DNA of 64,000 nt from an uncultured Flavobacteriales bacterium. GTDB taxonomy: Bacteria; Bacteroidota; Bacteroidia; Flavobacteriales_H; CAZUDW01. The position numbers were made by a program, and so were the translations under genes. Shown here one piece after another: positions 26,823 through 63,294 of this stretch (positions within the stretch are counted from its first letter, which is position 1; each line of letters starts with the position of its first letter). The notes beneath the pieces are model-generated. The model had not been told where the DNA came from, did not search any database, and saw nothing but the letters and a program-made list of their open reading frames with translations. Location: assembly GCA_964619305.1 (NCBI GenBank), contig CAZUDW010000001.1, forward strand, positions 14,356-78,355. Reading direction: 5' to 3'.

Positions 26823-27863
26823 TCACAGGAATCGAACACTGCTATCTGAACTTTTAAATGGATTGGGATTTATGAACCTTAATGAAATCTCCAATCCTCC
26901 CCTCTCACTTGTAGCGGCTTTTAATGCAGAAATATTTACGTCATAACTTAACCCTACTCCAAAATTCCCCAATTCAATATACATAGTAGGTATAGCTGCA
27001 TCCCCAAACCTATATTGCGCTCCAAGAGAAATGGCTGTTCCCTTAAAAGCCTCAGTGTATTTGGATTCCTCTTTCAATAAATAGCGTATCATCATTCCCC
27101 CAAGTATTTCCTGATGAGGTCCTTGCATATAAAATAATGCTGATGGCAAAATAGCCAATCCACTGTTCTTAAGACCAATGTAAGCATTTCCATGGGCTAC
27201 TATTTTTGAATACAATGGATCATTTTCTGAATAACTGAATAACTCAGGTTGGGTGATATGTGCATAAGAAGCACCAACATTTGCATAGAACATATCATTA
27301 GAAATCATGTTTGACTCCTTATTGAAATAATTCCAGTCAATACCTGCATTCAGATCTGTAAATGAGGTTGAAGGACTGAAATCAAAAATTTCGTATGTGG
27401 GCAAAGAACTATTGTATCCCTGTCCATCAAATTGAGAATCCCACTGCATATTGCCCTGATCAATGCTTCTCTGGGAAAAGCCACCTTGTATGCCTGCTGA
27501 TAATCTTTGTTTTTCACTGACAGTTAATATAGCAGACATTGAAGCATTTACTTTTGTGGTTGATATCTGCACCTCCCCTGCCTGATCCCTGTAGACAAAT
27601 AAGCCCCCGGCTAGAAAACTCTTTTCCCATTTCTTCTTAAACAATGCAAAATCAGAAGATAAAGCAAATGTTCTGTATGGAGAAGCAATGCTTTTCCATT
27701 GATCCTTGTAATTTAATATCACCCTGACATCTCCATTGAACACTCCCGTAAGTGCAGGATTTACTGCCAAAGGCGCCTCAGTGAATTGTGAAAAATGAAT
27801 GTCCTGTGCAATGATGGTATTTGTAAGACAAAGAATCAGAAAAAAGGATGCCGTTTTATTCAT
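26823..27863 (-). CDS. Type IX secretion system membrane protein, PorP/SprF family
   Basis: 346 aa. Signal peptide followed by the family N-terminal signature QDIHFSQFTEAPLAVNPALTG, then a beta-barrel-like remainder. Confidence 0.8.
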   Translation of the reverse strand: MNKTASFFLILCLTNTIIAQDIHFSQFTEAPLAVNPALTGVFNGDVRVILNYKDQWKSIASPYRTFALSSDFALFKKKWEKSFLAGGLFVYRDQAGEVQISTTKVNASMSAILTVSEKQRLSAGIQGGFSQRSIDQGNMQWDSQFDGQGYNSSLPTYEIFDFSPSTSFTDLNAGIDWNYFNKESNMISNDMFYANVGASYAHITQPELFSYSENDPLYSKIVAHGNAYIGLKNSGLAILPSALFYMQGPHQEILGGMMIRYLLKEESKYTEAFKGTAISLGAQYRFGDAAIPTMYIELGNFGVGLSYDVNISALKAATSERGGLEISLRFINPNPFKSSDSSVRFL

Positions 27864-28252: not shown

Positions 28253-28801
28253 TTGGACAACAACACGAAACAAAATTATCAGGAAGATGAACTTGTGAGT
28301 TTGCTAAAAGTTGGCGATCGCAAAGTCATGTCTATTCTATATGACAATTATTCCCCTGCTTTGTTTGGCGTAATCCTTCGCATCGTAAGATCAGAAGAAA
28401 TAGCGGAGGATGTATTGCAGGAAGCATTTATTAAAATATGGAAAAAGAGTGCATCTTATAATGCCTCCAAAGGGCGCCTGTTTACCTGGCTATTAAACAT
28501 AGCCAGAAACTCAGCTATAGATACAATCCGGTCTAAGGATCACAAAAAGTCAACAAAAAACCAATCGATAGAAAATGGCGTATATTGGCAAGAAAATATG
28601 GTTACGAATATCAGTACGGATAGTATTGGGGTAAAAGAGATCGTTGACAAACTGAAGCCGGAACATAAAGCTGTGATTGATTGCGTGTATTTTAACGGAT
28701 TTACACATAATGAAGCTGCTAAAGCACTCAATCTGCCGCTTGGAACTGTGAAAACAAGACTTAAAATTGCTATCCGTAATCTTAAACTACTGATGAACTG
28801 A
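28253..28801 (+). CDS. RNA polymerase sigma-70 factor, ECF subfamily
   Basis: 182 aa (TTG start per the ORF track; GTG at 28295 is an alternative). Region 2 (VLQEAFIKIWKK…FTWLLNIARNSAIDTIR) and region 4 HTH (FTHNEAAKALNLPLGTVKTRL). Confidence 0.85.
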   Translation: MDNNTKQNYQEDELVSLLKVGDRKVMSILYDNYSPALFGVILRIVRSEEIAEDVLQEAFIKIWKKSASYNASKGRLFTWLLNIARNSAIDTIRSKDHKKSTKNQSIENGVYWQENMVTNISTDSIGVKEIVDKLKPEHKAVIDCVYFNGFTHNEAAKALNLPLGTVKTRLKIAIRNLKLLMN

Positions 28802-29637
28802 TGAATACAAAAAAGTATATAGAATCCGGCATTCTGGAAGATTACTTGCTGGGTATTTCATCAGAACAAGAACAGAAAGAAGTTGAATCTCTTGCGAAAA
28901 TATATCCGGAAATAAAAGAAGAACTTGATAAATTGAGCAGAGCCCTTGAATATTTTGCAATGAGTTATCAGAAGGTACCCCCACCACATCTGAAGACCAA
29001 GATTATGGCTGCTATCAAAAATATAGAAACTGAAAGTTCAACACAGATTGTTTCATCTCCATATATTGATAATAATACTAAAATCCATAAAAACGATCCG
29101 TTTAAATGGCTTGCTGCTGCGGCAATTGCTCTACTTCTCATTACTGTTGCTCTATATCAGAACATGAAAATGCAATTAAATAACGCCAATGCACAAATTG
29201 CTGCCCTTGGAGGTGCTAATGAAAATATTGAAGGAGAACTGAACACGGTAAGATCTAACTACGCATCACTGAACAACCAACTGGCAATTGTGAGCCATTG
29301 CAAAACAAGGATTCGATTAGAAAACATGAATAATGTTAAAGCACCATGCTGCCTAATGCTTTATTGTATGGATAAAACAAAGGAGATGTATGTTCAGATA
29401 AACAAATTAAAACCTGCTCCTGAAGGCACTTTATACCAACTTTGGGCGATTAAGGATAATAAACCAGTGGATTTGGGACAAATAGAACCACCAAAAGATT
29501 CATTGCTTTTAGGACATGTTCCGTTTATAGACCATCCCCAGTCGTTTGTACTCACTCTAGAAGTCAATGGTTATGACACCATCATTCATAATGATGAAAT
29601 ACTTGCCCAGATACATCTGCCAGACACTGAAATGTAA
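28801..29637 (+). CDS. Anti-sigma factor (RskA-like), single-pass membrane protein
   Basis: 278 aa. Overlaps the sigma stop (ATGA). N-terminal anti-sigma helix region (ILEDYLLGISSEQEQKEVESL), a TM segment (WLAAAAIALLLITVALY), and a periplasmic C-domain. Confidence 0.7.
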   Translation: MNTKKYIESGILEDYLLGISSEQEQKEVESLAKIYPEIKEELDKLSRALEYFAMSYQKVPPPHLKTKIMAAIKNIETESSTQIVSSPYIDNNTKIHKNDPFKWLAAAAIALLLITVALYQNMKMQLNNANAQIAALGGANENIEGELNTVRSNYASLNNQLAIVSHCKTRIRLENMNNVKAPCCLMLYCMDKTKEMYVQINKLKPAPEGTLYQLWAIKDNKPVDLGQIEPPKDSLLLGHVPFIDHPQSFVLTLEVNGYDTIIHNDEILAQIHLPDTEM

Positions 29638-29648
29638 GTATTATCCAG

Positions 29649-31637
29649 CTACTTGTCCAGCACCTTAAACTCGGTGCGCCTGTTTAATTGCCTACCTTCT
29701 TCTGTATCGTTTGATGCTATGGGATTTGAAAAGCCTAAACCTTTAAATTGTAAGCGATCTGCTTTTATTCCGTGTTCTACCAAGTAATCAACAACTGCTT
29801 TGGCCCGTTTTTCAGATAAACTGTTGTTATAAGCAGAAGAACCTTTATTATCAGTATGGCCGGAAATCTCAATTCTCAATGTTGGCATTTCATTCAGCAT
29901 CTGAATCAGACGATTGAGCTCTGCTGTGGATTCGCTTCGTAGTATTGCCTTGTCATAATCGAAGAAGATATTATTTAATACAATACTTCCCCCCACTTCT
30001 ATCTTTTTCAATTTAATATTCTTTTCCACTTCCCTGTAACCTGTTGAAAGCGGAATATTTAGATTCTCTGAATGGAATAAATAACCTTGTGCATTTACAG
30101 CAATGCCATAATTTTTACCTGAAGGTAATGATACGAGATACTTGCCACTATTGCTGTTAGATTCAAATTCAGCGACCACTTCATTTTTTTCATTATCAGT
30201 GATCTCAATGTTTGCAAAAAGCGGTTTGGAGGTTTTTTCGTCAAACACAATTCCTTTTAACAAGGTAAGCTGTGGCCCTTCTTCCGTTGGTGGTTCCGGA
30301 AACGTGATCATATAAATATCTTTATCTCCATAACCTCCTGCCATCGCAGATGCATAATAGGCATGCCTGCCGCTGGCAGACATCACGAAGAAAAGATCGT
30401 CATCGGGCGTGTTGATGGGATAACCCAGATTTTCCGGTTCAGACCAGCTTTTTGTATCGGCATTATAAACACTTTTAAATATATCATAACCTCCCATAGT
30501 TTTATGCCCCTGTGAACTAAAGTATAAGGTTTTGCCGTCAGGATGAATAAACACTCCCTCTTCATTATATTCTGTATTGATGGAGTTGCCTATATTTTGA
30601 GCTTCACCCCATTTGTTGTCTTTCCCCTTATGGCAAATCCAGATATCTCTTTTACCGAAACTACCATCCGGTCTTGAACTGACAAAATAAGCTGTTCTGC
30701 CATCATAGGATACACTAATTGAAGATTCATGGTATTTGGAATTGATCGGCTCGGGCATTTTTTTAGGTTCCGACCATTGCTGCCCATTTAGTTTACACAT
30801 ATATATATTCCCATCACCCATATCGTCTTTATAGATATACAACATCTGCCCATCAGGAGAAAGAGAAATTGTTGCATCATGCTTTTCCGTATTGACCGGT
30901 TTTCCAATGTTTTCAGCATTCTTCCAGCTATTTTCTTCTTTGTTTATAACATAAATATCTTCATAATACACATTCAGCGAGAGATCCATTCTGCCTCCTG
31001 TAGTGGTATTTCTCCTGGATGTAAAAAACAGCACAGATTCATCTGCAGATATCACAGGCCCATATTCTGGAAAAGTTGTATTAATTGCAGAACCTACATT
31101 GTCAATCCTTACTTTAACAGAGTCTTTCACCTGTTCCCTTCCGTAACGACATTCCTCCAACTTCTTTTTAATATCTTTTAATTTATCTTGTGCTTTAGCC
31201 CCAAGAGTCATCTTGTATGCTTGGTATTTCCTCTCTGCTTTATCCCAATCCATATTGAGATGATACGCCCTCCCAAGGTAATAATCCAGAACAGGATCAG
31301 AATGCTTTTTCAACTCATTTGCTTTTTCGAGAAAGGGAATAGATTTGGTTTTCTGTGGTGAATTGAGGTAGCAATGTCCTATCTTCAGATTTAATTCCGA
31401 ATTATCAGGATTTAGTTGGTATGCGATCAGGTAATGTTCGATGGCTGTTGTATGAAACAAGGGACCGAGATAGTAATACCTGTCCCCTTCTCTTAATTCA
31501 CTCAGAGCGGTTTTCAGTTTGTCTTTATCTGGAAAATGGTTCTTGTCAAAAGGGATTTCGGTATTTTGAGTAAATCCGTCTTTTGTCATATAAGCTGATA
31601 ATAAAAAGATAATTATAATTCTTATATTTATTTTCAT
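29649..31637 (-). CDS. OmpA-family protein with N-terminal TPR region and TolB-like (WD40-like) beta-propeller repeats
   Basis: 662 aa with a signal peptide. TPR-like segment, repeated TolB-type blades (YFVSSRPDG…DIWI; YFSSQGHKTMGGYDIF), and a C-terminal OmpA domain (FDYDKAIL…HTDNKGSSAYNNSLSEKRAKAV…NRRTEF). Confidence 0.85.
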   Translation of the reverse strand: MKINIRIIIIFLLSAYMTKDGFTQNTEIPFDKNHFPDKDKLKTALSELREGDRYYYLGPLFHTTAIEHYLIAYQLNPDNSELNLKIGHCYLNSPQKTKSIPFLEKANELKKHSDPVLDYYLGRAYHLNMDWDKAERKYQAYKMTLGAKAQDKLKDIKKKLEECRYGREQVKDSVKVRIDNVGSAINTTFPEYGPVISADESVLFFTSRRNTTTGGRMDLSLNVYYEDIYVINKEENSWKNAENIGKPVNTEKHDATISLSPDGQMLYIYKDDMGDGNIYMCKLNGQQWSEPKKMPEPINSKYHESSISVSYDGRTAYFVSSRPDGSFGKRDIWICHKGKDNKWGEAQNIGNSINTEYNEEGVFIHPDGKTLYFSSQGHKTMGGYDIFKSVYNADTKSWSEPENLGYPINTPDDDLFFVMSASGRHAYYASAMAGGYGDKDIYMITFPEPPTEEGPQLTLLKGIVFDEKTSKPLFANIEITDNEKNEVVAEFESNSNSGKYLVSLPSGKNYGIAVNAQGYLFHSENLNIPLSTGYREVEKNIKLKKIEVGGSIVLNNIFFDYDKAILRSESTAELNRLIQMLNEMPTLRIEISGHTDNKGSSAYNNSLSEKRAKAVVDYLVEHGIKADRLQFKGLGFSNPIASNDTEEGRQLNRRTEFKVLDK

Positions 31638-31671: not shown

Positions 31672-34137
31672 TTAAACCCGGCAATACACTCTTTTAACCC
31701 TTGACGACACAGACGTCAGCACCTCGTAGGGAATTGTTCCAAACTCTTCTGCATATTGTTCAATTGACCTTCCCGTCCCGAAAACAACCACATCTTCATC
31801 TTCATGTACATCCATCCCTGTTACATCCACCATGCACATATCCATGCAAACATTACCTACCACAGGCAGCAGTTTGCCCCGGATCAGCAGATGCCCCTTG
31901 CCATTGCCTAAAATGCGATGAAACCCATCGGCATACCCAATAGCAACGGTGGCAAGTTGCATATCTTTATTGGTTTTACCCGTCCTGCCATATCCTATCG
32001 TTTCTCCTTCCTTCACATGCCTAAGCTGTATCACTTTTGTCTTCAATGATCCGAGTGGCAACAGTTCTTTATGGCCGACACCGTAAAGTCCTATACCGAT
32101 TCTCACCATATCAAATTGATGCTGTGGATAGTGAAGCACTCCGCTTGTATTAAGCACATGACGAAGAAAATCATAATTCAATCCTTTTTTCAAAGCCGCA
32201 GTCATGGTTTTGAAAAGCGCAATCTGTTGCAAGGTAAACTGTTCCTGTTTTGCATCATCACTTGCGGCAAGATGTGTGAAAACAGAACAGACCCTAATCT
32301 TGTCTCCAAAGTCATTCAATAGCTGAATCAAACGGGATATATCACTTTCTTTAAATCCTAGCCTGTGCATACCCGTGTCTAGCTTGATATGAACGGGTAG
32401 TTTTTCTGATGAGGATTCAAGAACATATATAAGTTTTTCCAAAATCCCAAAACCAGAGATTTCAGGTTCGAGCTTTGCAGAGATCATTGCTTCCATGCTG
32501 TCATCCTCCGGACTCATTACCATGATGGGACAACTAATTCCTGCATCACGAAGCAACACACCTTCATCCGGATAGGCAACTGCCAGGTAATCGATACGGT
32601 TGAACTCCAGAACCGAAGCAATCTCATGACTGCCGCTGCCATAGGAAAAAGCTTTGACCATTGCCATGATTTTTGTATTCCTTTTGAGTTTTGAACGGAA
32701 AAAGTTCAGATTGTGCACCAATGCATCCAGATCTATTTCCATTACCGTCCTGTGAGATTGCTGTTCAAGCAGATGTGCAATACGCTCAAAACCAAAAATA
32801 CGCGCTCCTTTGATCAGAATCGTCTCATCTGAAAAATGTAATTTTTTAAAATCAGCAATAAAAGCATCGGTATCTGGATAATAATGCTGCTCCGGCAGGT
32901 TAAAAGCATCTTTTGAAGCGGATATATTTTTACCAACTCCTATTAAACGTGAAATTTGTTTGCTATGAAACATTTCTGAAACAAGTCTGTATAATTCTTT
33001 CTCCTTAATACCGGTCTGGAGAATATCGGATAATATTACCGTTTTTTTCTGATGTTGTTTTTGTGCTGTCAACATCTCCAATGCGATCTCAAGTGATCCT
33101 ATATCTGAATTATAGGAATCATTAATAAGGGTGCAATGGTTGATTGCTCCTCTCATTTGCAGTCTCATTGCAACCCTTTCCAGAGATTGCACCCGCCTGC
33201 ATGCAACTGCAAAGTCAAGACCAAGACAAATACAAGCACACAAAACATGTATGACATTCTCAACAGAAGCCCTGTCGGTAAAAGGGAGGTGAATGGTGCG
33301 CTCATTGCCAGAATAAACCAGCACAATATAGCAAGAATCATCACTATTTGTAAGTTTCTTCAAATACAGATCAGCTCCCGAATCTGATTGAGACCAGCTG
33401 AAAGTTTTTATGCCTGGAACTACAGATTGTCTGATCAATTCATGGTCTCTGCAATAGATCAATAAATCAACGTGATGGAAAAGCTCCATCTTCTCAGCAG
33501 CCTTCTCTACAAGGCTTTTAAAATTAATGCTGTGAGCATCACCAATATTTGTAAAAATCCCAATGGTCGGTTTCAGAATTTTTTCTAGTCGTTTCATTTC
33601 TCCGGGCATTGAAATACCTGCTTCAAATATGCCGAGGTCGTGTGTTGAATTTAGCTGCCAGACAGAAAGCGGAACGCCAACCTGGGAATTATAGCTTTTG
33701 GGACTACGCACAATATTCATTTCTGGCGCAAGCATCTGAAATAACCACTCCTTCACAATGGTTTTCCCATTGCTGCCAGTGATCGCTATCATGGGTATTT
33801 TAAACCGGGAACGATGAAACTTAGCAAGCTTATGTAACGCACTGACAGTAGAATCACATAATATAACGCTCGTATTTTGCTGCACCTGTTTAACTGCCTT
33901 TTTATCAGAAACTATAAAATTCTTTACTCCTCTTTGATTCAAATCTCTGATAAAATCATGCCCATCATGATGTTCCCCTGGAATTGCGATAAAAACGGAA
34001 TCAGGAGGTATCGTTATTTTCCGACTATCTAGCAGAATATGCTTCACAACCCTATTATTCTTTCCACATAATAATTTCCCTTCAATGATGTTTGCAATTA
34101 AATCTGCTGTGTATGTAATCTTATCTTTATTGGCCAT
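31672..34137 (-). CDS. Bifunctional UDP-MurNAc-tripeptide--D-Ala-D-Ala ligase (MurF) / alanine racemase (Alr) fusion
   Basis: 821 aa. N-terminal MurF (Mur ligase P-loop ITGSNGKT). C-terminal alanine racemase with the PLP-Lys motif MVKAFSYGSG and a C-terminal beta-domain. Confidence 0.85.
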   Translation of the reverse strand: MANKDKITYTADLIANIIEGKLLCGKNNRVVKHILLDSRKITIPPDSVFIAIPGEHHDGHDFIRDLNQRGVKNFIVSDKKAVKQVQQNTSVILCDSTVSALHKLAKFHRSRFKIPMIAITGSNGKTIVKEWLFQMLAPEMNIVRSPKSYNSQVGVPLSVWQLNSTHDLGIFEAGISMPGEMKRLEKILKPTIGIFTNIGDAHSINFKSLVEKAAEKMELFHHVDLLIYCRDHELIRQSVVPGIKTFSWSQSDSGADLYLKKLTNSDDSCYIVLVYSGNERTIHLPFTDRASVENVIHVLCACICLGLDFAVACRRVQSLERVAMRLQMRGAINHCTLINDSYNSDIGSLEIALEMLTAQKQHQKKTVILSDILQTGIKEKELYRLVSEMFHSKQISRLIGVGKNISASKDAFNLPEQHYYPDTDAFIADFKKLHFSDETILIKGARIFGFERIAHLLEQQSHRTVMEIDLDALVHNLNFFRSKLKRNTKIMAMVKAFSYGSGSHEIASVLEFNRIDYLAVAYPDEGVLLRDAGISCPIMVMSPEDDSMEAMISAKLEPEISGFGILEKLIYVLESSSEKLPVHIKLDTGMHRLGFKESDISRLIQLLNDFGDKIRVCSVFTHLAASDDAKQEQFTLQQIALFKTMTAALKKGLNYDFLRHVLNTSGVLHYPQHQFDMVRIGIGLYGVGHKELLPLGSLKTKVIQLRHVKEGETIGYGRTGKTNKDMQLATVAIGYADGFHRILGNGKGHLLIRGKLLPVVGNVCMDMCMVDVTGMDVHEDEDVVVFGTGRSIEQYAEEFGTIPYEVLTSVSSRVKRVYCRV

Positions 34138-36534: not shown

Positions 36535-37206
36535 ATGTCTGAACTTTGGATTGTTCCAACACCTATAGGGAATCTTGCAGACCTCACTTTCAGGGCGAAG
36601 GAAGTCCTCGAAAGTGTGGATATCATCCTTGCTGAAGACAAAAGGCAGACCTCTAAACTACTGAATCATTATGGGATACGGAATCATTTATTAGCTTATC
36701 ACCAACATAATGAAAATAAGATAAGCGTTGATTTGCTCAAACGCATCCTCGCAGGAGAAACTATGGCAATTGTAACAGATGGAGGCACACCATTGATATC
36801 TGATCCCGGATTCCCCCTTGTTCGTGAATGTATCAAAAATAACGTTGAAGTACATTGTCTGCCAGGTGCTACTGCTTTTACGACAGCTATTGCAATATCC
36901 GGCTTGCCTGTAAACCGCTTTTGTTTCGAAGGTTTTTTGGCCCACAAAAAGGGACGTAATAAAAGGTTGGCATCACTGGCAAATGAAACCAGAACGATGG
37001 TTTTTTATGAATCTCCTCACAGGATATCTAAAACGCTGAAGGAAATGATCAGCACTTTTGGGTCTGAAAGAAGAGCATCAGTATCCCGTGAACTCACAAA
37101 AATATATGAAGAAACTAAAAGGGGGACACTTGAGGAGTTGTCAGAATATTTTAACGACAATGCACCAAAAGGTGAATTTGTGATTGTAGTGTCTGGAAAA
37201 GAATGA
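36535..37206 (+). CDS. rsmI: 16S rRNA (cytidine1402-2'-O)-methyltransferase
   Basis: 223 aa. LWIVPTPIGNLADLTFRA N-terminus, characteristic of RsmI/tetrapyrrole-methylase-fold proteins. Confidence 0.9.
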   Translation: MSELWIVPTPIGNLADLTFRAKEVLESVDIILAEDKRQTSKLLNHYGIRNHLLAYHQHNENKISVDLLKRILAGETMAIVTDGGTPLISDPGFPLVRECIKNNVEVHCLPGATAFTTAIAISGLPVNRFCFEGFLAHKKGRNKRLASLANETRTMVFYESPHRISKTLKEMISTFGSERRASVSRELTKIYEETKRGTLEELSEYFNDNAPKGEFVIVVSGKE

Positions 37207-37227: not shown

Positions 37228-40200
37228 CTAACGGACTAAAGACACACTACCTTTTTTTATCGTTTCTTCTTTGTTGTCAAGTGAAAATTTCACATACCAT
37301 ACATAAACTCCTGCATTGACAGGTTTGCCATTATAAGTGCCCTCCCATCCATCTCCAACATCATGTGATTCAAACATCTTATTGCCCCAACGATCATAGA
37401 TAACATATTCTATATTGCTGATATTTTTTCCTCTCACATATAAAATATCGTTGTGCCCATCCCCGTTGGGAGAGAAGATATTTGGTATGAAGAAATCTGA
37501 ATTATCTTCAACAACAATGGTAACACTATCTGTTGCACTGCAACCACTGTCACCAATAACAGTAAGATAATATGTAGTTGTTTCCTCAGGAGTTGCAACC
37601 GGATTCTGGCAATCTGAGCATGATAAAGATGTAGCAGGTGTCCACAACCAGAAAGGACCACCTTCTCCAATCAGTTGCACTGATTCACCCGCACTAATGG
37701 TGGTGTCCGGCTTTGCATCAACTTCAATTGCTGAGGGTTGGTTGATTGTTATACTTTGTGTCATGGTGCATCCATTAGCATCAGTCAAAGTCAATTGATA
37801 AACTCCTGCTGACAGACTGTCCTGATTGGCCGATGTACCACCATTGCTCCAGTTATATAAATATGGTGATATTCCACCGTTTACGGAAATGACAGCACTA
37901 CCATCTGATTTTCCATAGCAACTTGCATCAGTTCCTGATAAAGTCAATACTATTGCCGGTGGTTCGGCAATATTGGTAGAATCAGTTGTTGTACATCCAT
38001 TATTATCAGTAATTGTCACATAATAGGTTCCTGCTAAAAGACCGGTTACAGTAGAATCTATAGCTGAATTGCTCCAGAAATACTGATAAGGACTGCTTCC
38101 ACCTGAAGGGTTTACAGATGCTGTTCCATCCGAGTTTCCTGCGCATAATACATCCGTTGAAGAAACTGAAGAAATAAGCATAGCAGGTTCATTTATCATC
38201 AATGTATCAACACCGATACATCCGTTGCTATCAGTAACCGTTAAATAATATAAACCTGGAGATAAGCCGGTGAGCACTGGCACGCTATCCCCTGTGCTCC
38301 AGGAATAAGAGTAAGGACTTGTCCCTCCGTTTACACTAACTAAAACCTGCCCATCAGCATAACCAAAACAACTTACATCCGAACTGTTGAACAAAACAGA
38401 CACAACAGATGGGCCAACGAGTGTAACAGTATCAAATAAAGTACATCCATTGTTATCGGTGATCGTAATATAATATATCCCTGCTGATAATCCGGTTGCA
38501 GAGGAATCCGTTTGTCCGCTGGACCAATTATAATTGTATGGAGAAGTACCTCCTGAAGGTGTTATTACTATTGTGCCGTTGTTGTCTCCGTTGCAAAGAG
38601 GACTTACCGTATCTAAAACAGCAGTCAATGCAGCAGGTTCCGTAATGGTAATACTGTCAGTATTTGTACAACCGAATACATCTGTTACAGTAACATAATA
38701 AGTGCCCGCTGAAAGACCGGTTGCCAATTGTGTAGTTTGATTACCTATACTCCATGCATATTGAAACATGGCAGAATCAATACAGCTGTTTGGTGATGAA
38801 GGCATTGCGAGAACTGTTCCATCATTTCCTCCATTGCAGTTTACCATGGTTGCAGAAAAAATAATCTGTGGTGTATTGCAAGCAAGACAATATTTATCCA
38901 TCCATATATCAAGACCTGCTGATCCAGGTCTGGGATCTTCCCATGCCATATATGCACAGCTATCAATGGAAACGATGTGTGGAAAATTCTGATTCCCGTT
39001 TTCTAGACATACGGGAAGATAGCTTGTATACGTGATCCCATCACAGTTAAAATGTCTCGTATAAATATCATCTCCATTACCTCCACCGTCTTTTCTCCAA
39101 ACAGCAAAGAAACCACCGGTTCTATCAGGAGTAATGTCTGCAAAGCGATCATTATCAACACTATAGCTAATACGCACATGTCCACCGCTGATATTCCACA
39201 AAAGATTCCCTGTTGAATCTACCCTTTGCGCTGAGACATCGTTATCACCACTCTGATATCCACTTTCACCACAAACAATTATGCCACCTCTATAGTCAGG
39301 AATGGGAACAGGACGATCTGCTTCATCATTACCATTCAGCTTATATTCTGAAAGTAAAAATATTCCTGTAGTACCGCTACCAAATCCAGAAGTCAGCGTA
39401 CCATTAAGATAATATCTTGCACCATAGATGGCAAAAGGACCACTTGGGAAACTAGCATCTGTCCACACGAAATACACGTCATTATTACCAGTAAAAACAA
39501 CTTTGGTTTCATCCTGCACAGCTGAATTGTCGCAAATCAACTTTCCGTCTGTTTGCCAGAGTGATGTGCCATTGCCATCAAACCTTTCAGCATACACATC
39601 CCTGTTGGGGCCTCTGGCATCTGACCACACGTAAATCGCACCACCTAACCCATCCACTGCCATATCCAGATCATCCTGTGCTCCATTCAAACCGCACACG
39701 GAAATTCCATTTGCTGTCCATAAAGGATTTCCATTAACACCCATTCTCTGGGTATAAATATCATAGTTGCCACCACGGTTGTCTTCCCATCCAATTATAC
39801 AACCACCTGTGGAATCAGATATTATTTTAGGATTTCGCTGTATACCTGTTGCAGTACAGACAGCATTTCCATTCAGTGTCCACAATGCATTACCACCTGC
39901 ATCGATATGCTGAGCATAAATATCCCATGTTGCACCCCTTTTATCAGACCAAACAACAAAAACTCCTCCGCTGCCATCAGTACACATATCCGGTGTTTCC
40001 TGCGTTCCGGTTTCATTACAAACTGGTATTCCATTGAGTGTCCACATGGGAGCGAAAAGAATATCCATGCTCTGCATATAAATATCCTGGGAACTATTTC
40101 TGTTATCTTCCCATACCATCAGAATATGTGTCTCACTGTCATCGGTAATCATCCTGATCGTCTTTTGAGAACCGGAGATATTATTTACAACAGGGTAATT

Positions 40201-40272
40201 CTGAGCTTCTGCAGATTTTATCATGAAAAGCACAAAAAGCAATAACGAAATAACTAATTTCAATTGTGTCAT
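37228..40272 (-). CDS. Large T9SS cargo protein: N-terminal unassigned ~56-aa repeats, central SprB repeats, C-terminal type-B (gliding-motility-associated) CTD
   Basis: 1014 aa with a signal peptide. At least 5 repeats with a W[ES]DxRxxxxDIYxQ…G…W…NG…VC core, then ~6 SprB-type repeats (C.G..DG…GG.SPY.Y.WS.G…TGL.AG.YY.T.TD.NGC), then a C-terminal domain (FIPNIFSPNGDGHNDIL…YDRWGNK) matching the T9SS type-B sorting domain. Confidence 0.85.
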   Translation of the reverse strand: MTQLKLVISLLLFVLFMIKSAEAQNYPVVNNISGSQKTIRMITDDSETHILMVWEDNRNSSQDIYMQSMDILFAPMWTLNGIPVCNETGTQETPDMCTDGSGGVFVVWSDKRGATWDIYAQHIDAGGNALWTLNGNAVCTATGIQRNPKIISDSTGGCIIGWEDNRGGNYDIYTQRMGVNGNPLWTANGISVCGLNGAQDDLDMAVDGLGGAIYVWSDARGPNRDVYAERFDGNGTSLWQTDGKLICDNSAVQDETKVVFTGNNDVYFVWTDASFPSGPFAIYGARYYLNGTLTSGFGSGTTGIFLLSEYKLNGNDEADRPVPIPDYRGGIIVCGESGYQSGDNDVSAQRVDSTGNLLWNISGGHVRISYSVDNDRFADITPDRTGGFFAVWRKDGGGNGDDIYTRHFNCDGITYTSYLPVCLENGNQNFPHIVSIDSCAYMAWEDPRPGSAGLDIWMDKYCLACNTPQIIFSATMVNCNGGNDGTVLAMPSSPNSCIDSAMFQYAWSIGNQTTQLATGLSAGTYYVTVTDVFGCTNTDSITITEPAALTAVLDTVSPLCNGDNNGTIVITPSGGTSPYNYNWSSGQTDSSATGLSAGIYYITITDNNGCTLFDTVTLVGPSVVSVLFNSSDVSCFGYADGQVLVSVNGGTSPYSYSWSTGDSVPVLTGLSPGLYYLTVTDSNGCIGVDTLMINEPAMLISSVSSTDVLCAGNSDGTASVNPSGGSSPYQYFWSNSAIDSTVTGLLAGTYYVTITDNNGCTTTDSTNIAEPPAIVLTLSGTDASCYGKSDGSAVISVNGGISPYLYNWSNGGTSANQDSLSAGVYQLTLTDANGCTMTQSITINQPSAIEVDAKPDTTISAGESVQLIGEGGPFWLWTPATSLSCSDCQNPVATPEETTTYYLTVIGDSGCSATDSVTIVVEDNSDFFIPNIFSPNGDGHNDILYVRGKNISNIEYVIYDRWGNKMFESHDVGDGWEGTYNGKPVNAGVYVWYVKFSLDNKEETIKKGSVSLVR

Positions 40273-54755: not shown

Positions 54756-56417
54756 ATGACCAAGTATATGAGATTAAATTATTTGACATTTATTATTATT
54801 GGGCATTTAATCTCATCAATAGCTGTTGCCCAAACATTCACCTCATCGAATTTGCCAATAGTTGTCATAAACACAAATAATGTACCTATTCCTGATGAAC
54901 CCAAAATCTCTGCTGATATGGGCATTATATACAATGGCCCCGGCAACAGGAATTATTTAACCGATCCTTTTAATGAATATAACGGGAAGATCGCTATTGA
55001 GAAAAGAGGATCTTCCTCGCAAATGTTTCCTAAAAAACAGTATGGGCTGGAAACACGGGACACACTTGGTATAAAAGTGAATGTATCAATATTCGGATGG
55101 CCTTCAGAACATGACTGGATATTATATGCTCCATATAGCGATAAAGCACTAATCAGAAATGTACTAGCATATAAACTGGGATGGGAAACGGGCCATTATG
55201 CACCTAGAACTAAATTATGTGAGTTGGTTCTCAACAATGAATATATGGGTGTTTATGTCTTTATGGAAAAAATTAAAATAGATGCCGGAAGGGTTGACAT
55301 CGCAAAACTTACTCACATTGATACTTCAGGATATGAACTCACAGGTGGATATTTATTAAAAATCGATAAACTGACCGGGGGAGGCAGTGGTTGGTATTCA
55401 CCTTTTGATCCTATTCCTGCAGCAAACAATCAAAAAATATATATTCAGTATCATGACCCTGATCCTGATTCATTATTGCCAGTTCAAAAATCCTATATTC
55501 GTGACTATATAACACAATATGAATCGGTTTTAAGCAGTCCAAATTATAATGATCAAACCACCGGATATCCGGCCTACATTAATATCTATTCATTTATAGA
55601 TTATTTAATTGTTAATGAAGTAAGTAAAAATGTAGATGGTTATCGCTTAAGTACCTTTTTTTATAAAGATAAATATACAAAGGATCCAAGAATTTACGTT
55701 GGCCCATTGTGGGATTTTAACCTTGCATTCGGAAATGCTAATTATTGCGGTGGAGGAAATGCCAACGATGGTTGGGCTTTGGACTTTAACACAGTTTGCA
55801 GTAATGATGGATGGCAGATACCTTTTTGGTGGGATCGTTTATTGCAGGATACAACGTTTCAGAACAAGCTAAAATGTAGATGGGAGGAACTTAGAGAAGG
55901 TCCGTTATATACAGATACTTTGTTGAATTGGATAGATAGCACCACCGTTTATTTAGATGAATCTCAGCAAAGGAATTTCATACGTTGGCCTATTTTAAGC
56001 ACTTATGTTTGGCCGAATAATTTTGTGGGCGGAAGCTATCAAGCTGAAATTGACTATATGAAAACCTGGATCAGTGATCGATTGAACTGGCTTGATGCCA
56101 ATATTCCCGGAACCTGTTATCCATGGACTTCCTCGAATGACAATGATTTACTTCTTTCACATATTTTGATTTATCCCAATCCCATCAGCGAAGAAAGTGT
56201 ATTGTTTTTTAATCTTGAACATACAGCCAAGCTAAACTTGAATGTTTATAATGTTTTCGGTCAAATGGTAAAAAGAATCAATGTTGGTCAATGTATTGAA
56301 GGCTCAAATTTTATTTCACTCAGAGAAATTTTCACCAGCATTGTTGCCGGAACTTATATTATACAATTAGAGTTAGCAGGTAAAAAGCCTCTGGTAATCC
56401 GAATCGTAAAGTTATAA
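54756..56417 (+). CDS. CotH kinase family protein with T9SS type-A C-terminal sorting domain
   Basis: 553 aa with a signal peptide. CotH-type motifs (IEKRGSSSQMFPKKQYGLE, YVFMEKIK). C-terminal ~80 aa (…LIYPNPISEESVLFFNL…GTYIIQLELAGKKPLVIRIVKL) matches the T9SS CTD. Confidence 0.7.
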   Translation: MTKYMRLNYLTFIIIGHLISSIAVAQTFTSSNLPIVVINTNNVPIPDEPKISADMGIIYNGPGNRNYLTDPFNEYNGKIAIEKRGSSSQMFPKKQYGLETRDTLGIKVNVSIFGWPSEHDWILYAPYSDKALIRNVLAYKLGWETGHYAPRTKLCELVLNNEYMGVYVFMEKIKIDAGRVDIAKLTHIDTSGYELTGGYLLKIDKLTGGGSGWYSPFDPIPAANNQKIYIQYHDPDPDSLLPVQKSYIRDYITQYESVLSSPNYNDQTTGYPAYINIYSFIDYLIVNEVSKNVDGYRLSTFFYKDKYTKDPRIYVGPLWDFNLAFGNANYCGGGNANDGWALDFNTVCSNDGWQIPFWWDRLLQDTTFQNKLKCRWEELREGPLYTDTLLNWIDSTTVYLDESQQRNFIRWPILSTYVWPNNFVGGSYQAEIDYMKTWISDRLNWLDANIPGTCYPWTSSNDNDLLLSHILIYPNPISEESVLFFNLEHTAKLNLNVYNVFGQMVKRINVGQCIEGSNFISLREIFTSIVAGTYIIQLELAGKKPLVIRIVKL

Positions 56418-57114: not shown

Positions 57115-60100
57115 CTATTCGCTTACTATTACTCTAATACCTTCCGAATGAGAAGTGAATTCTGGAGCATACATACACTGAATCGTGCTGATCCCGTTAG
57201 AAAAGTCCCCTTTATGCGTAACACGCAGTGAATATTCAAACACATAAGTTCCTTTAGGTAAATATTCTATGAAAAAATTTGTTGATGCATCTTTGGAGCT
57301 TTCATAATAGCCTAAACCATCCTGATATTTATATCTTGATAAAATATTCTCAGGTTCAAATCCTGCAGCTCTCATATCTTTCAAATGTACATATTCCATA
57401 TGCCGATCAGAGCGCAGAACAATCCGTACGGTTATTTTATCCCCTAGATGAAGTTTAGTATTAGTATTTATAGGTTTCAGCACTTTCCCTCCTTCAGTTA
57501 TCTTTTCTAAAAAAAGTTTCTTCTCAAGTTGTAATGGCGTTTTATGAGATGTGATTTTATCCAACTGTTCAAAATATTGCCAGTAAATCGCTCCCCATGC
57601 TATTCCTTTTCCCGGTTTTGTCACAACCACATTACCCATTTCAGGTTTGATTTCTGATTTACTCCAGGATGTTTTGAAATAACCCGTTCCGTTTTCCACT
57701 TTAATGTCATCCATTTTTTTAGGATCAATTTGCAAATTGCCTATTTTTATTTGAACAAGATTTTCCGTTTCAAGCCATTCAGTACCTGATATTAACAAAG
57801 CGTAACATGCATCGGCTGTAGCTCTGGTTGTCTTCCAATCCTGTGTCTGCTTTTGTTTTAAGAGCCAGATACGCATTTCTTCTACCGATTTCTTATCATC
57901 AGCAATCTCATTAAATGCTTCGATAAGTAAAGAATGCATCTCAATAGGAGCTTGATACCAATAATACCCCGGTACATTTTCTTTCCAGTACATGCCCATT
58001 TCTTCATTGAAAATAGCATTCTCTCTCAAAGAGTTGATAATATTGGTGGGTGTTGTTTTATCTCCAAACCTGTAGATGCCCAATGCAAGCATACCCTGCA
58101 TATAACGGCTGTTTTCAAGCCAATATTTTTTTGCCTGTTCCATGTAATAGTTAAACGCCTCTTTGTTTCTGCCATTTACTGATATATCTGTAAAGAAACT
58201 TCTTGCATATAAATACTGAATTTGCGTATATCCAAGATTATTGTCATTAAGATTCACCTTATTTCTTATCAGCCATTGATAATCTTCTCTTATCCTGTTA
58301 TCTAGATAAGGTATTGCCTTGCTAACCATATTCCATATACGATGACTCTCCCTTATTTCCTTTACCCCAAGTTGATCAAGGTGCCCAAAACCGGCAACGA
58401 TGTGTTGGGTAATATAACGACTTTCCGGCATACCTGGGAACCAGGGCCAGCCCCCATTTGAAACCTGTGCTTTTTCCAGTTTAAGCAATGCAGAACCCAA
58501 CTCATTACTCATCCTATTCAAATCAAACAGCAACCCTATCCTTTTTTTTCTCTCTGTCTCATTTTTTGCATCTAAAACCCAAGGTGTTTCCTCTAACATA
58601 AGTGATTTTAATTCCTGATTCTTCTCGAGATTAGAAAGTAAGGCTTCCGGGTTTTGTATTTTCCATGAATCAAAAACGTATTTGACTTTAGGATGAGAAT
58701 TGGCGATATGTGATGCAATACTGTTAGCATAAAAGCGTGAAAAAGTCTGTTCAGAACACTCATAAGGATATTCCATCAAATATGGCAATGCCTGAATTGC
58801 ATACCATGCCGGATTTGATGTGAATTCAAGTGTTAGTTTATGATTTTTTAAGGAAGAAGACTTCCCTGAACTCAGCAGCTTTCTGAATGTAAATGTTTTA
58901 GTCTCATTACCCCTGATTGGCATTGGCATAGACTCAGTTACAAGCATACGATTTGTTAATACAGGTATAGCAGATTCTTCACCATCGCTGAACTTACCCG
59001 ATTTAGCAACCACCTTATACACAACTGCCCCTATTCCTTCAGGTATTCTGATATTCCATTGAACTAAAGCACTTTGACCTTTTTTTGCAGTAAAAACCTG
59101 ATCTGATTTTTTTTCACTCATAAAGGATTTATCTATTGGCTTCATTGTAAACGCATCAAAAAAACTTAGCCTAGCATTGCCTTTCATCTCCTTTTCAGTC
59201 AGATTTGATATTTTGGCAGTGAAAGTCATTTGGTCATTTTCCCTGAAAAAGCGCGGAACATTGGGTGTGATCATCAGGTCTTTTTGAGTAACAGTTTCCT
59301 CATATAACATGGCTGATTTAAGATCTTTTGTATGTGCTAGCCCCATAAATTTCCAACGGGTTAGTGCTTCAGGAATAGTGAACTTTATCGTCACATTGCC
59401 ATCCTCATCTGTTGTAAGGTGGGGATAGAAAAATGCTGTTTCATTAAAATTACTCCTGGCTTTGATTATTCCGAGTTGATCTCTATTACCTGTTTGCCCC
59501 CCGCTATCCCTTTCGTCTTTAGTTTTATCTGCACCAGTTATTGTCTGAGTTTGCCGATTCGTATCCTTCTCCCCGGATTTATCCATTTTCTTCAGTTCTA
59601 TATTACCTCTACCTCTTGCTTCAGAAGCTGGCTTATTCACACTGCTTTCTCCTAATAATCCAACTTCTTCATCCTCATCTAATATCGCCCCCCCCTTTGC
59701 AGACTTTTTTGCATAACGATAGAGCCGATCACCATATCCATAAAAATCATATCCAAACCAATTGAGATAATCGTAATATCTCCCGGAACCACTGTAATAA
59801 TTATTCCAGCCTTCCGAATAAAGTGCAGATTGCCTGACGCCAAAAGCATTTCTTGATTGCCAGTAAAGCGATGAATAGAACGATTGAAAAACATTAAAAT
59901 TCCACATATTCGGTATAATTGCGTCAAGTGATGCATCATAAAGGGCAGCAAGCATTTCAGATGCTACTTTTTCACCTTTCGGACCTTTTATCTTTACTTT
60001 CCATTCTTCATCCTGGCCGGGATAGAGTTTATTGCGGAAAGTTTCAAACTCTATATCCAGCTTTTTATTGCTGTAAGGAACGATGATGATCTGTCCAAAA

Positions 60101-63100
60101 GTATATGGTCTGTTATTCTTAACCACCGCAAGATGGATTGCAAAATTTCCCCTGTACTCTTCCTTCACGGGGATGCTGATACGCCTCTGCTCCTCATTCA
60201 GATTGATCCATCGCCTCTGTATGATTTTGTTTTTCAGTTCAATCTCATATAATATATATACATCTTTATCTGCCGACCCAATCATAAACTCTACATTCTC
60301 TTCTGGTTCAGCTTCTTTTTTCAAAGGAACAAACCAAACAGCATCTCCAACAGGCATTTCCTTTTTTAATGAAGAATAAATCCTGATATATCTAATCATT
60401 TTAACCTCTTCTCCGTATTTATCTTTACAAGTTGCTTCCATTTTATAATAGCCAGGTTTCCATTCTGGCAATTTATGGAGGACAAGATCATCACTTTTTT
60501 TGGTATCAAAGGGCTTATCATACACTTTCAAGTCAGGTTTCCAGGTGCTGACATTATTTTCATTATCATATACATCATTTGGGAACTTAGCACTATGTTC
60601 AGCTTTAGTCATGCTGAATTTGTCCGGTCTTTCCCAGTCCCTTTTCCTGTATACTTGTTTGGGTGCTTCCAGATGATAAAAGATCAGTCTTCCGGATGCA
60701 GGCTCTTCCACACCCATTAAGTTGAATGTTTTTAACTTGAATGAATCCTGTCCGTTTTGTTCTATCTGATCAGGTACATTAACACTTATGTTTAAAGCAT
60801 TATAACCCACTACAACTACTTGTTGAGCACTATGAGTCTCCCCGTTAATGTCTGTAACATCTGCTGTTATGGTGTAAGTGTACTGAGGCTTATAACGTCT
60901 ATTAATACTTTTATCTGGAACGGCTTTAAAAGATATATTAAATGCTCCTTTCTCATTTGTAGTGATTACTCCATGTGCAATTTCCATCTGGGGAGAAGTA
61001 GGATACCAACCTCTCCAGTAGCCCCAGAAAGGAAATGATGCATTCCTTACAACATGATATCGAACTTTTGCTCCATCTACAACAGCACCTGCATATGCTA
61101 TTGCATTTCCCTCAACTTTCACGCTATCATCAAGCTTAAAGCTTCCGACTACCGGATTAAATTTAATTTCAAACTTTGGCCTTTTATATTCTTCTACCCT
61201 GAAATAAACGCTTCCATAGTTATTGGTTATATGCATTTGACCGTTAAGAGAAGATGTTGGGGCAGTAAAAGTACCGCTGAAGGTGCCATACTCATTTGTA
61301 GTAAGCTGGAGTTCTCCTACCTTTTGGTAGTTCACATCATACATTACCACCGTTGACTTATAATTCGTTTTAATACTGTGTTTCTCTCCATCTGTTTCTA
61401 TCACAATTCCCTTAAAATATATTATTTGACCAGGTCTGTAAATAGCTCGATCTGTAAAGAAATGCGTATTAATCCTTACTCTATCATAGGGTGAGTAACT
61501 ATATTGATAATAGGTGTCTTCTGTGTTGAGTTCATCATCTTCCTTTGTGAATTCTATATAAAAGTTGCGATAGTTCTTGGTAGCAGGAATTTTGAAATAC
61601 CCATCCTGGTTAGTGATGTACGTTCCGTATTTTTTCCAATCATACGCCCTAAGAGCATAGTTGTATTTTTCATAATACAATTTAGCCGTAACTCCTTCCA
61701 TGGGTTCTCCAGTTGTCCTGTTCAATGTTCTGACCTCATAAGTTCCATCATTCATATTCCTGATAAAATAACTTATGTCAGAGCTCCAGAATGATTTATA
61801 TGCAACTGCATTCCCCTTGTAACTAAATTCAGAATCGCTTCCTGCTAGCAGCACATAAAACCCTTTATCGGTTGCAGGATTTGCAAGCTCTATCTTATGT
61901 TGCTGAAAATCCCCTTCATTCTCAAGTTCTCCTTCCCATTCCTTCACAACTTTCAGGCTCCTTAGATATTCTATCCATTCATCATCATATTTTTTCAACC
62001 TGTTTTTTCTGAATGTTTCAAAATCAGCTTTGGCAATACGGTAATAGACTTTACCTATGTTGCGGTAGCTCAACAATGTAAGGAAAGGTTTGCCTGGCAC
62101 CTGCACATTTCCAAGATCGAATTTCATATCTTTGGTCTTTATCCTATCCACCAGGTATTTGCAGTTATCACTTCCATGTGAATCAGGGTATTCTTTGATT
62201 GCTTGTTTGCATATCTCGAGTGCCTTCTTCCTGTCCCACTTATGCTCTTCATTAAACGGTGGGTTGTATTTGTTGGCATTTTCATCATAGGCAGTAGCCA
62301 GATAATAAGCTGCATCTGCAGAGCCCGGATAATCTTTGTATTTTTCCATCAGGTGTTTAAGAGCATCCATATATAAACTGTCTTTTAGTTCTGATATCGA
62401 TTTGCTACTGGCAAACCCCAGACGTTTGATTTCGACATCTATCAGTGCTGCCGGATCCACATCATTGAGATGAAAAGCAGTGAGTTGTTGCAGTATCTCC
62501 GCAGCGTGATAAGACATGGACAAGCTATCTTTGCTGGAAAGTACTATTGATTCGAATTCATCTGCATCTCCGAAAAACCTGTTGTCTGCCACTTCATAAC
62601 GATTAGTAGGTTGATCCACCTCCGGCTCTGTGTTCATAAAAAAATCCACTGCACGATGTGCAAGAAAATCGTATAATGTAGGCCTGAAATTTCTGCTGTC
62701 TTCATATTTGATCAACACCTCATCAAAAGTACTGATGGGTGTATGCTGTAAACTGTCTGTACTTTGCAGTGAGAGATTGTAGTTTTTTACAACCATACTC
62801 AGCAGACTTTTCAGATCCCAGGTCCTGATGTCTTCTCTTTTAAAATTCACAGTCTGCGTACGGTCATAGAATTTCCAGCGGTTGTTCTCGAAATAACGCC
62901 AGTATATTTCAGCAGTGATAGAATATAGCACCTGCTTCACCGGGAACCGAGCATGATCCGCTTCCTGTTGTAATTCATATATGGAGTTAACATAATTATC
63001 TTCTTCCAAATAGGAATTGAGTTTGATACGATAAATTAGTGCCTTGACAATTTGTGCATTATTTCCATTAGTTTTTGATTTCTCCAGTATCCCGTTCACT

Positions 63101-63294
63101 ACCTCCAGGGCAGATTTTGTCAACCCCTTATTAAGCAAAGAATCCACTTTGATCCATTCTTTTTTATAAGTGCTCCCTTTGGGAAATATAAGCAGCGGTT
63201 TTTGGGGGTTGAAAGGATGGAGATTGATAGCAAAACCCGCTGAAAGAAGCAGAATGCACACAACTATGATTTGCAGAAAGTGTCTTTTTTTCAT
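57115..63294 (-). CDS. Alpha-2-macroglobulin family protein (giant, ~2060 aa) with variant thioester-site motif
   Basis: The ORF extends to 63357. The start is placed at MKKRHFLQIIVVCILLL (signal peptide). Multiple MG-like beta-sandwich segments; a thioester-domain start ALPYLMEYPYECSEQTFSR (CxEQ); and a C-terminal receptor-binding-like domain. Confidence 0.8.
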   Translation of the reverse strand: MKKRHFLQIIVVCILLLSAGFAINLHPFNPQKPLLIFPKGSTYKKEWIKVDSLLNKGLTKSALEVVNGILEKSKTNGNNAQIVKALIYRIKLNSYLEEDNYVNSIYELQQEADHARFPVKQVLYSITAEIYWRYFENNRWKFYDRTQTVNFKREDIRTWDLKSLLSMVVKNYNLSLQSTDSLQHTPISTFDEVLIKYEDSRNFRPTLYDFLAHRAVDFFMNTEPEVDQPTNRYEVADNRFFGDADEFESIVLSSKDSLSMSYHAAEILQQLTAFHLNDVDPAALIDVEIKRLGFASSKSISELKDSLYMDALKHLMEKYKDYPGSADAAYYLATAYDENANKYNPPFNEEHKWDRKKALEICKQAIKEYPDSHGSDNCKYLVDRIKTKDMKFDLGNVQVPGKPFLTLLSYRNIGKVYYRIAKADFETFRKNRLKKYDDEWIEYLRSLKVVKEWEGELENEGDFQQHKIELANPATDKGFYVLLAGSDSEFSYKGNAVAYKSFWSSDISYFIRNMNDGTYEVRTLNRTTGEPMEGVTAKLYYEKYNYALRAYDWKKYGTYITNQDGYFKIPATKNYRNFYIEFTKEDDELNTEDTYYQYSYSPYDRVRINTHFFTDRAIYRPGQIIYFKGIVIETDGEKHSIKTNYKSTVVMYDVNYQKVGELQLTTNEYGTFSGTFTAPTSSLNGQMHITNNYGSVYFRVEEYKRPKFEIKFNPVVGSFKLDDSVKVEGNAIAYAGAVVDGAKVRYHVVRNASFPFWGYWRGWYPTSPQMEIAHGVITTNEKGAFNISFKAVPDKSINRRYKPQYTYTITADVTDINGETHSAQQVVVVGYNALNISVNVPDQIEQNGQDSFKLKTFNLMGVEEPASGRLIFYHLEAPKQVYRKRDWERPDKFSMTKAEHSAKFPNDVYDNENNVSTWKPDLKVYDKPFDTKKSDDLVLHKLPEWKPGYYKMEATCKDKYGEEVKMIRYIRIYSSLKKEMPVGDAVWFVPLKKEAEPEENVEFMIGSADKDVYILYEIELKNKIIQRRWINLNEEQRRISIPVKEEYRGNFAIHLAVVKNNRPYTFGQIIIVPYSNKKLDIEFETFRNKLYPGQDEEWKVKIKGPKGEKVASEMLAALYDASLDAIIPNMWNFNVFQSFYSSLYWQSRNAFGVRQSALYSEGWNNYYSGSGRYYDYLNWFGYDFYGYGDRLYRYAKKSAKGGAILDEDEEVGLLGESSVNKPASEARGRGNIELKKMDKSGEKDTNRQTQTITGADKTKDERDSGGQTGNRDQLGIIKARSNFNETAFFYPHLTTDEDGNVTIKFTIPEALTRWKFMGLAHTKDLKSAMLYEETVTQKDLMITPNVPRFFRENDQMTFTAKISNLTEKEMKGNARLSFFDAFTMKPIDKSFMSEKKSDQVFTAKKGQSALVQWNIRIPEGIGAVVYKVVAKSGKFSDGEESAIPVLTNRMLVTESMPMPIRGNETKTFTFRKLLSSGKSSSLKNHKLTLEFTSNPAWYAIQALPYLMEYPYECSEQTFSRFYANSIASHIANSHPKVKYVFDSWKIQNPEALLSNLEKNQELKSLMLEETPWVLDAKNETERKKRIGLLFDLNRMSNELGSALLKLEKAQVSNGGWPWFPGMPESRYITQHIVAGFGHLDQLGVKEIRESHRIWNMVSKAIPYLDNRIREDYQWLIRNKVNLNDNNLGYTQIQYLYARSFFTDISVNGRNKEAFNYYMEQAKKYWLENSRYMQGMLALGIYRFGDKTTPTNIINSLRENAIFNEEMGMYWKENVPGYYWYQAPIEMHSLLIEAFNEIADDKKSVEEMRIWLLKQKQTQDWKTTRATADACYALLISGTEWLETENLVQIKIGNLQIDPKKMDDIKVENGTGYFKTSWSKSEIKPEMGNVVVTKPGKGIAWGAIYWQYFEQLDKITSHKTPLQLEKKLFLEKITEGGKVLKPINTNTKLHLGDKITVRIVLRSDRHMEYVHLKDMRAAGFEPENILSRYKYQDGLGYYESSKDASTNFFIEYLPKGTYVFEYSLRVTHKGDFSNGISTIQCMYAPEFTSHSEGIRVIVSE

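Follow-up and report, generated by a model that had tools for sequence, protein, structure and literature searches.

A predicted eight-bladed propeller on an SprB stalk with a type-B T9SS tail in an uncultured Flavobacteriales bacterium, and a candidate PorP partner in trans

In Flavobacterium johnsoniae, nine of the 12 type IX secretion system (T9SS) cargo proteins that end in a type-B CTD (C-terminal domain) are encoded next to an sprF-like gene, and the other three are orphans with a common orphan shuttle, Fjoh_1677 (PMC12618676). In addition, a PorE-PorP-cargo complex has been published, and in the published model PorP-PorE complexes are linked to type-B cargos that are non-mobile and tethered to peptidoglycan (PMC9143113). 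Here we describe a type-B cargo gene at 37228-40272, minus strand, of a 64,000-nucleotide (64 kb) stretch of contig CAZUDW010000001.1 from an uncultured Flavobacteriales bacterium (GCA_964619305.1); this whole stretch is called the window, and coordinates count from its first letter. The gene is an open reading frame (ORF) of 1014 amino acids (aa) that starts with ATG and whose stop codon is 37228-37230. An earlier note had described it as a type-B cargo with an unassigned repeat array, SprB repeats and no PorP/SprF partner beside it; the ORF and every feature described there are real, and the overall interpretation is partly supported.

The one unusual point of this protein is the fusion of a propeller, SprB repeats and a type-B tail, parts that are ordinary in themselves. 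We think it probable that the product is a surface protein exported by the T9SS, with its tail on a PorP-family protein in trans and its SprB stalk presenting the propeller as a binding head.

Signal peptide, SprB stalk and type-B tail

By inspection, residues 1-23 read as the N-terminal Sec signal expected of a T9SS type-B cargo: the n-region contains a Lys, the core is hydrophobic, cleavage would fall at an A-E-A motif, and a lipobox Cys is missing. The mature protein is predicted to begin with Gln, directly after residue 23 of MTQLKLVISLLLFVLFMIKSAEA (Table 1). The SprB repeats that follow the propeller carry the motif C.G..[DN]G at residues 479, 560, 635, 710 and 785, and AlphaFold2 (AF2) models them as five repeated all-beta units with a predicted local distance difference test (pLDDT) above 90 throughout model residues 1-380. 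With repeated above-cutoff matches and a predicted all-beta fold, they fit the definition of the SprB repeat (PF13573), a beta-sandwich. The earlier estimate of about six such repeats was close, in that Pfam finds five and the segment after them is weakly PKD- or Ig-like. This linker has an AF2 pLDDT of 29-44, a range in which its fold is not established.

The extreme C-terminus (residues 929-1014) matches both TIGR04131 (55.3 bits, cutoff 35) and PF13585 (CHU_C; 67.3 bits, cutoff 27). The earlier note had made its type-B call depend on TIGR04131, and with this score above cutoff the call holds. Furthermore, measured against 100 type-B CTDs, the tail keeps 13/13 of the positions that are conserved in at least 80% and 29/34 of those conserved in at least 50%, including the motifs P-N-x-F-x-P-N-x-D-G-x-N-D, RWG, W-x-G and the terminal G-x-v-x-l-x-R. 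It is the sole type-B CTD within the window.

There is also an internal, partial match to TIGR04183 at residues 585-609 (window 38446-38520; 36.2 bits, cutoff 23). A type-A CTD at this place was rejected, as the match spans only profile positions 39-63 of 72 and falls within SprB repeat 2. SprB proteins of this sort could be mislabelled 'type A sorting domain-containing' by automated annotation, and PF18962 likewise appears in the precomputed Pfam lists of many SprB matches.

The absent neighbour and a candidate shuttle in trans

No PorP adjoins the cargo gene, whose flanks are housekeeping genes, an M28 peptidase gene among them. As the earlier note had it, there is a single PorP in the window, about 10 kb off at 26823-27863. 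Its premise that type-B cargo genes are usually followed by a dedicated porP/sprF gene fails among the relatives of this one. Using PorP and type-B CTD profiles built from 159 loci fetched with this protein, we counted 99 distinct type-B cargos, 94 of which have 1.2 kb or more of sequence downstream; a PorP is adjacent in 25 of these 94 (27%), and Pfam on the first downstream ORF of ten cases scored as 'none' revealed no missed PorP (0/10). Because 69/94 relatives are orphans, and because the orphans of F. johnsoniae share a shuttle, the absent neighbour is ordinary: orphan status is common, has a mechanism that is already known, and is not an anomaly. Three loci hold tandem pairs of type-B cargos with no PorP in the locus (L138 485-4709, L144 200-8609 and L024 635-7796), which is consistent with several cargos using one shuttle encoded elsewhere. 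No CTDs come closer to the window CTD than those of L138 (53-56% identity).

The window PorP belongs to the PorP/SprF family (PF11751 126.2 bits, cutoff 22.3; TIGR03519 145.1 bits, cutoff 90.55) and has no cargo gene upstream, its neighbours being a convergent purQ-like gene and a divergent sigma/anti-sigma pair of the extracytoplasmic function (ECF) type. Its strongest homologs in the fetched loci (L111, L153 and L148; about 200-211 bits) each lie directly downstream of an SprB/type-B cargo. In 24 adjacent cargo-PorP pairs, the closer a CTD is to the one studied here, the closer its partner PorP tends to be to the window PorP (Spearman rho 0.85, p 2e-7), and the adjacent pairs with the closest CTDs (L153, L148 and L111; 48-56% identity) are those with the three closest PorPs (202-208 bits). 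Judged by sequence, the window PorP is a homolog of the shuttles that partner this CTD class, and it is a plausible candidate for the in-trans shuttle and anchor of the cargo.

A PorE-like gene encoding PD40 and OmpA domains lies 1.8 kb from the window PorP. Of the parts that make up PorE, namely a tetratricopeptide repeat (TPR), a propeller, a carboxypeptidase regulatory domain (CRD) and OmpA_C, neither TPR nor CRD was detected in its product, which we call PorE-like only. On the minus strand this gene comes first and PorP second, with the plus-strand sigma pair between them; the position of the pair between T9SS anchoring genes may hint at envelope-stress control of the module. In related loci, cargo-PorP-PorE triads are frequent, and a PD40/OmpA gene directly follows PorP in L153 and L148 and occurs also in L112. 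It is possible that the PorE-like protein is the peptidoglycan tether of the window PorP.

Based on these findings, the following route seems likely for the protein. The signal peptide would take it into the periplasm, where the type-B CTD would be recognised at the T9SS translocon and passed to an outer-membrane shuttle of the PorP/SprF family, a step suggested by family membership and by published work in F. johnsoniae and Porphyromonas gingivalis. Because the shuttle gene is not beside the cargo gene, the cargo would be served in trans, the likeliest shuttle being the orphan PorP. The nearby PorE-like protein may in turn tether this PorP to peptidoglycan, and the cargo would then be statically anchored and not track-borne, as the co-variation and the gene order in other genomes suggest. 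Remaining attached through its CTD, the cargo would use its five SprB beta-sandwich repeats as a stalk that holds the propeller, a predicted fold with a presumed binding role, off the cell.

Several observations weigh against this route. The correlation between CTD and PorP similarity is partly confounded by shared ancestry. The PorE-like gene scores 312.7 bits with NF052230 (T9SS_PorE) and 332 bits with NF053607, below cutoffs of 600-620, and the opposite-strand sigma/anti-sigma pair splits it from PorP. The model of stalk and tail is poor at residues 849-950, and for the last part of the CTD it is moderate. Finally, the 64 kb seen are part of a genome, and the true partner could be another PorP/SprF paralog encoded outside them. 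This last alternative, under which the PorP at 26823-27863 serves otherwise, for example as a general T9SS PorP, is a serious contender to which we assign somewhat less than an even chance. Bacteroidota with type-B cargos usually hold several PorP/SprF paralogs, and in F. johnsoniae most of the 12 cargos have such a paralog each (PMC12618676). However, the closest homologs of the window PorP partner the most similar CTDs, and the window PorP, like the shared shuttle Fjoh_1677, is an orphan.

A second alternative concerns the static anchor, since the cargo could instead be a mobile, SprB-like gliding adhesin that depends on an SprF-like shuttle and a gliding track. The SprB repeats and the type-B CTD would suit such a role, the three orphan type-B cargos of F. 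johnsoniae are sent to the gliding machinery (PMC12618676), and a sub-threshold GldE-like gene is present in the window. We nevertheless regard a mobile adhesin as unlikely, given that 1014 aa is far shorter than SprB-type filaments, that core gliding genes are not visible in the 64 kb, and that the PorP class nearest to the window PorP precedes PorE-like genes in L153, L148 and L112, an arrangement that the published model ties to non-mobile cargos (PMC9143113).

The propeller head, its family and the fusion

The tandem array noted earlier is real, and its copies number eight, so that the earlier count of at least five was too low. The motif W.D.R...DIY is found every 54 aa exactly, not about 56, at residues 54, 108, 162 and 216, and degenerate copies stand at about 270, about 335, 392 and 444, which extends the array from the roughly 300 aa first proposed to about 445 aa (residues 24-468). 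Blades 1-4 are canonical and blades 5-8 degenerate, with an insertion between blades 5 and 6. Blades 2-4 are identical at 23-27 of 54 positions, with local alignment scores 19-25 standard deviations over shuffles; blades 5-8 are weaker yet still related to the canonical blades (z-scores up to 11 against shuffles). The suggestion that the repeats are blades of a beta-propeller is borne out by structure prediction, in which eight four-stranded blades form a closed ring (pLDDT 92.8).

With this model as query, the best Foldseek match is CylK (E 2.6e-12, 17% identity), and glycoside hydrolase (GH) and sialidase propellers rank below it. Such matches could indicate that the propeller is an enzyme, whether CylK-like and alkylating or sialidase- or GH-like, and that the protein is a catalyst displayed on the surface. 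We consider this improbable, as the nearest solved structures are eight-bladed scaffold or binding propellers and the W-x-D-x-R...D-I-Y-x-Q residues are most probably structural and form no catalytic site, because they recur in every blade. The propeller does not belong to the WD40 family, for Pfam WD40 gives no match at E <= 1 in the whole protein, and a profile search of PDB sequences with the propeller returned nothing useful (a WD40 chain at E 0.28 only).

The propeller belongs to a large group of sequences. In a database of 5.8 billion proteins, the N-terminal 468 aa have 662 homologs, with E-values down to 1e-186 at 30-45% identity, and hundreds of proteins are 30-47% identical over the whole propeller; the homologs come from many lineages, namely Bacteroidota, Latescibacterota, Eisenbacteria, Kuenenia, Chloroflexota and one archaeal metagenome-assembled genome. 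An alignment of 49 homologs yields the eight-fold consensus NGVxVCxxxxxQxxPxIxSDGxGGAIIVWxDxRxGxxDIYAQRIxxxGxxxW, whose NGVxVC motif places one conserved Cys in each blade of a secreted protein. HMMER, run exhaustively against 1.84 billion cluster representatives (50% identity clusters), recovered 20,395 proteins at E <= 1e-3, including 5,959 at E <= 1e-30, and many of the matches are long proteins with several propellers. The genomic neighbours of two propeller relatives are not conserved.

The earlier note could not assign the repeat to any named family and proposed a search for it in other proteins. In fact NCBIfam TIGR04275 (beta_prop_Msarc), a 40-position repeat model that spans part of the 54-aa blade only, detects this protein in three stretches at 38.4 bits, below its cutoff of 85. 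It also matches 49/50 aligned relatives (range 35-111 bits) and exceeds the cutoff in four: P0001 (111 bits), P0311 (106), P0030 (95) and P0316 (86.5). By the curated rule, the propeller is related to TIGR04275 and is not a member. No paper on TIGR04275 was found in a literature search. Because TIGR04275 detects the repeat, and because 20,395 clusters contain it, we conclude that it belongs, as a diverged member, to a propeller family that is very large, uncharacterised and already indexed, and that it is no new kind of repeat, so its novelty is gone. An unassigned family or fold might be argued from the sub-cutoff score here, from the lack of any Pfam model covering residues 24-468 and from solved structures being undetectable by sequence in the PDB profile search; given the detection of the relatives by TIGR04275, the number of clusters and a fold that is a standard eight-bladed propeller, that view is very improbable and is refuted at both fold and family level. 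Some relatives, P0086 and P0316 among them, give weak matches to NF053835 (PDIAV motif-containing lipoprotein), and some contain choice-of-anchor Z repeats (NF058597), which points to a relationship between this propeller and additional named families.

The tails of these relatives set the fusion apart. Among the top 120 propeller homologs, about 67 have precomputed type-A or FlgD-Ig tail domains, and in none of the 120 are there SprB motifs or a strong match to a type-B CTD; the same holds for 147 representatives from the exhaustive search, except for this protein's own allele, P0234. A type-B CTD hidden Markov model (HMM) of our own gave weak matches in 19/120 and 42/147 relatives, which we rejected as cross-matches, since an NCBIfam re-check of 17 relatives placed TIGR04183 above cutoff in 17/17 and TIGR04131 in 0/17. 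Because most propeller relatives are, by sequence, secreted proteins with type-A T9SS tails, the module appears to be extracellular elsewhere too. Conversely, a propeller HMM found no match among the roughly 99 related SprB/type-B cargos (positive control, 454 bits), and a junction query made of blades 7-8 and SprB repeats 1-2 retrieved no protein that spans both halves. Scans of genome and metagenome loci matched the SprB/CTD half only, L128 and L129 excepted, and these two were rejected as carriers of this propeller for having a different type of repeat. Our tentative reading, which we hold with some reserve, is that a propeller module found elsewhere with a type-A tail (PorV shuttle, covalent attachment to anionic lipopolysaccharide, A-LPS) was here moved onto an SprB stalk and a type-B tail served in trans by the orphan PorP-PorE module 10 kb away.

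The fusion itself is no artefact, because an intact and nearly identical gene stands in the same slot of independent assemblies. An exact look-up of the protein matched no record, but contigs of the same species were reached through the neighbouring housekeeping proteins. The 1014-aa ORF is present in full in ENA ERZ27248470 and ERZ4201062 (99.7-99.9% identical, differing at 1-3 aa, most changes being synonymous), both of which keep the order rsmI, this gene, nadD-gmk-yicC, and a 1014-aa product is called in the identical slot of JGI 3300002231, of which the first 1.2 kb were compared. An assembly chimera or decaying gene, which might be suspected since the searches run found the exact architecture in no other lineage, is refuted by these copies and hardly credible. 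The GC content at third codon positions (GC3) of the gene is 0.30 and matches the window mean (0.316 +/- 0.029); therefore, there is no sign of recent transfer. A scan for sigma-70 promoters and terminators gave results at or below shuffle expectation, the sigma-70 part being inapplicable to Bacteroidota promoters.

The T9SS-related genes in the window include the PorP, the PorE-like gene and one type-A cargo, whose passenger region has no NCBIfam match. These and the remaining features are listed in Table 1.

Table 1. Features of the cargo protein and of the 64-kb window
Feature	Residues	Window coordinates	Strand	Evidence or remark
Sec signal peptide	1-23	40204..40272	-	MTQLKLVISLLLFVLFMIKSAEA, then Q; inspection of translation
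Eight-bladed beta-propeller	24-468	38869..40203	-	8 repeats of ~54 aa
SprB stalk	469-848	37729..38868	-	five repeats of ~75-81 aa; PF13573 144.9 bits, 5 stretches
Linker, weakly PKD- or Ig-like	849-925	37498..37728	-	PF22352 18.4 bits, cutoff 27
Type-B T9SS CTD	926-1014	37231..37497	-	TIGR04131, PF13585
Orphan PorP/SprF-family outer-membrane protein		26823-27863	-	PF11751, TIGR03519
PorE-like PD40 + OmpA protein		29649-31637	-	PF07676 (PD40), PF00691 (OmpA)
ECF sigma factor and RskA-type anti-sigma factor		28253-29637	+	between PorE-like gene and PorP
rsmI-like		36535-37206	+	convergent flank of cargo gene
nadD/gmk/yicC		upstream of cargo gene	same as cargo gene	flanking housekeeping genes
553-aa protein		54756-56417	+	C-terminal type-A T9SS domain, TIGR04183 31 bits
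2080-aa bacterial alpha-2-macroglobulin-like protein		57115-63357	-	MG2, A2M bait region, A2M and bMG10 domains
821-aa single ORF		31672-34137	-	Mur ligase domains (MurF-like) fused to alanine racemase
BamG-family protein		6987-8306	-	313 bits, cutoff 250
GldE-like protein, sub-threshold		3583-4845	-	194 bits, cutoff 376

Comparison with known systems

On its own this protein is of little weight, since shuffling of passenger domains is common in modular T9SS surface proteins. Its propeller represents a family of about 20,000 clusters that has no Pfam model, solved structure or characterised member, and for which the eight-blade model and the repeat definition should aid annotation. By the counts given above, most type-B cargos among the SprB-type relatives are orphans, and the co-variation of CTD class with PorP class carries the shuttle model of F. 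johnsoniae over to uncultured Bacteroidota and provides a means of predicting pairs that act in trans. If the proposed change of tail and service in trans are true, the protein would be a natural domain-swap experiment, would show that propellers of the WxDxR/DIYAQ family serve as distal binding heads on the cell surface, and would provide a defined pair of orphan cargo and shuttle outside F. johnsoniae.

The likeness to the eight-bladed propellers of WD40 or BamB type (Notchless, Cdc4, Ika8 and BamB) and to CylK is at the level of the fold only, with 7-17% identity; Pfam finds no WD40 or PQQ match in this protein, which also lacks CylK's partner domain. With the TIGR04275, or WxDxR...DIYAQ, family it shares the same repeat core, here as 8 repeats of 54 aa, whereas some 267 sampled relatives have no strong type-B CTD or SprB motifs, and the tails checked are type A. 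The most similar layout is that of the 766-aa protein of L128/L129, which has a propeller-like N-terminus, SprB repeats and CHU_C, a CTD that is 50% identical and, like the present gene, no adjacent PorP. Its N-terminal repeat, however, differs (DGGY..G.T.S.G....D.Y..KLD..GN..W), being about 25% identical and missed by the propeller HMM, and it has 2 SprB repeats instead of 5. In L129 (8784-13988), and also in L128, what comes after the cargo is an ABC-2 permease with an ABC_transp_aux gene (gldF/gldG-like) and not a PorP.

Compared with SprB of F. johnsoniae, the protein is much shorter and bears an eight-bladed propeller passenger that occurs in 0 of about 99 related cargos. With SprB, Fjoh_1123, Fjoh_1720 as well as Fjoh_4934 of F. 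johnsoniae and PG1035 of P. gingivalis it nevertheless has in common a Sec signal, SprB repeats and a TIGR04131/CHU_C tail. By analogy, dependence on a PorP/SprF-family shuttle is expected of this protein as of other SprB-repeat type-B proteins, and its gene resembles the three orphans (Fjoh_1123, Fjoh_1720, Fjoh_4934) in standing apart from any sprF-like gene.

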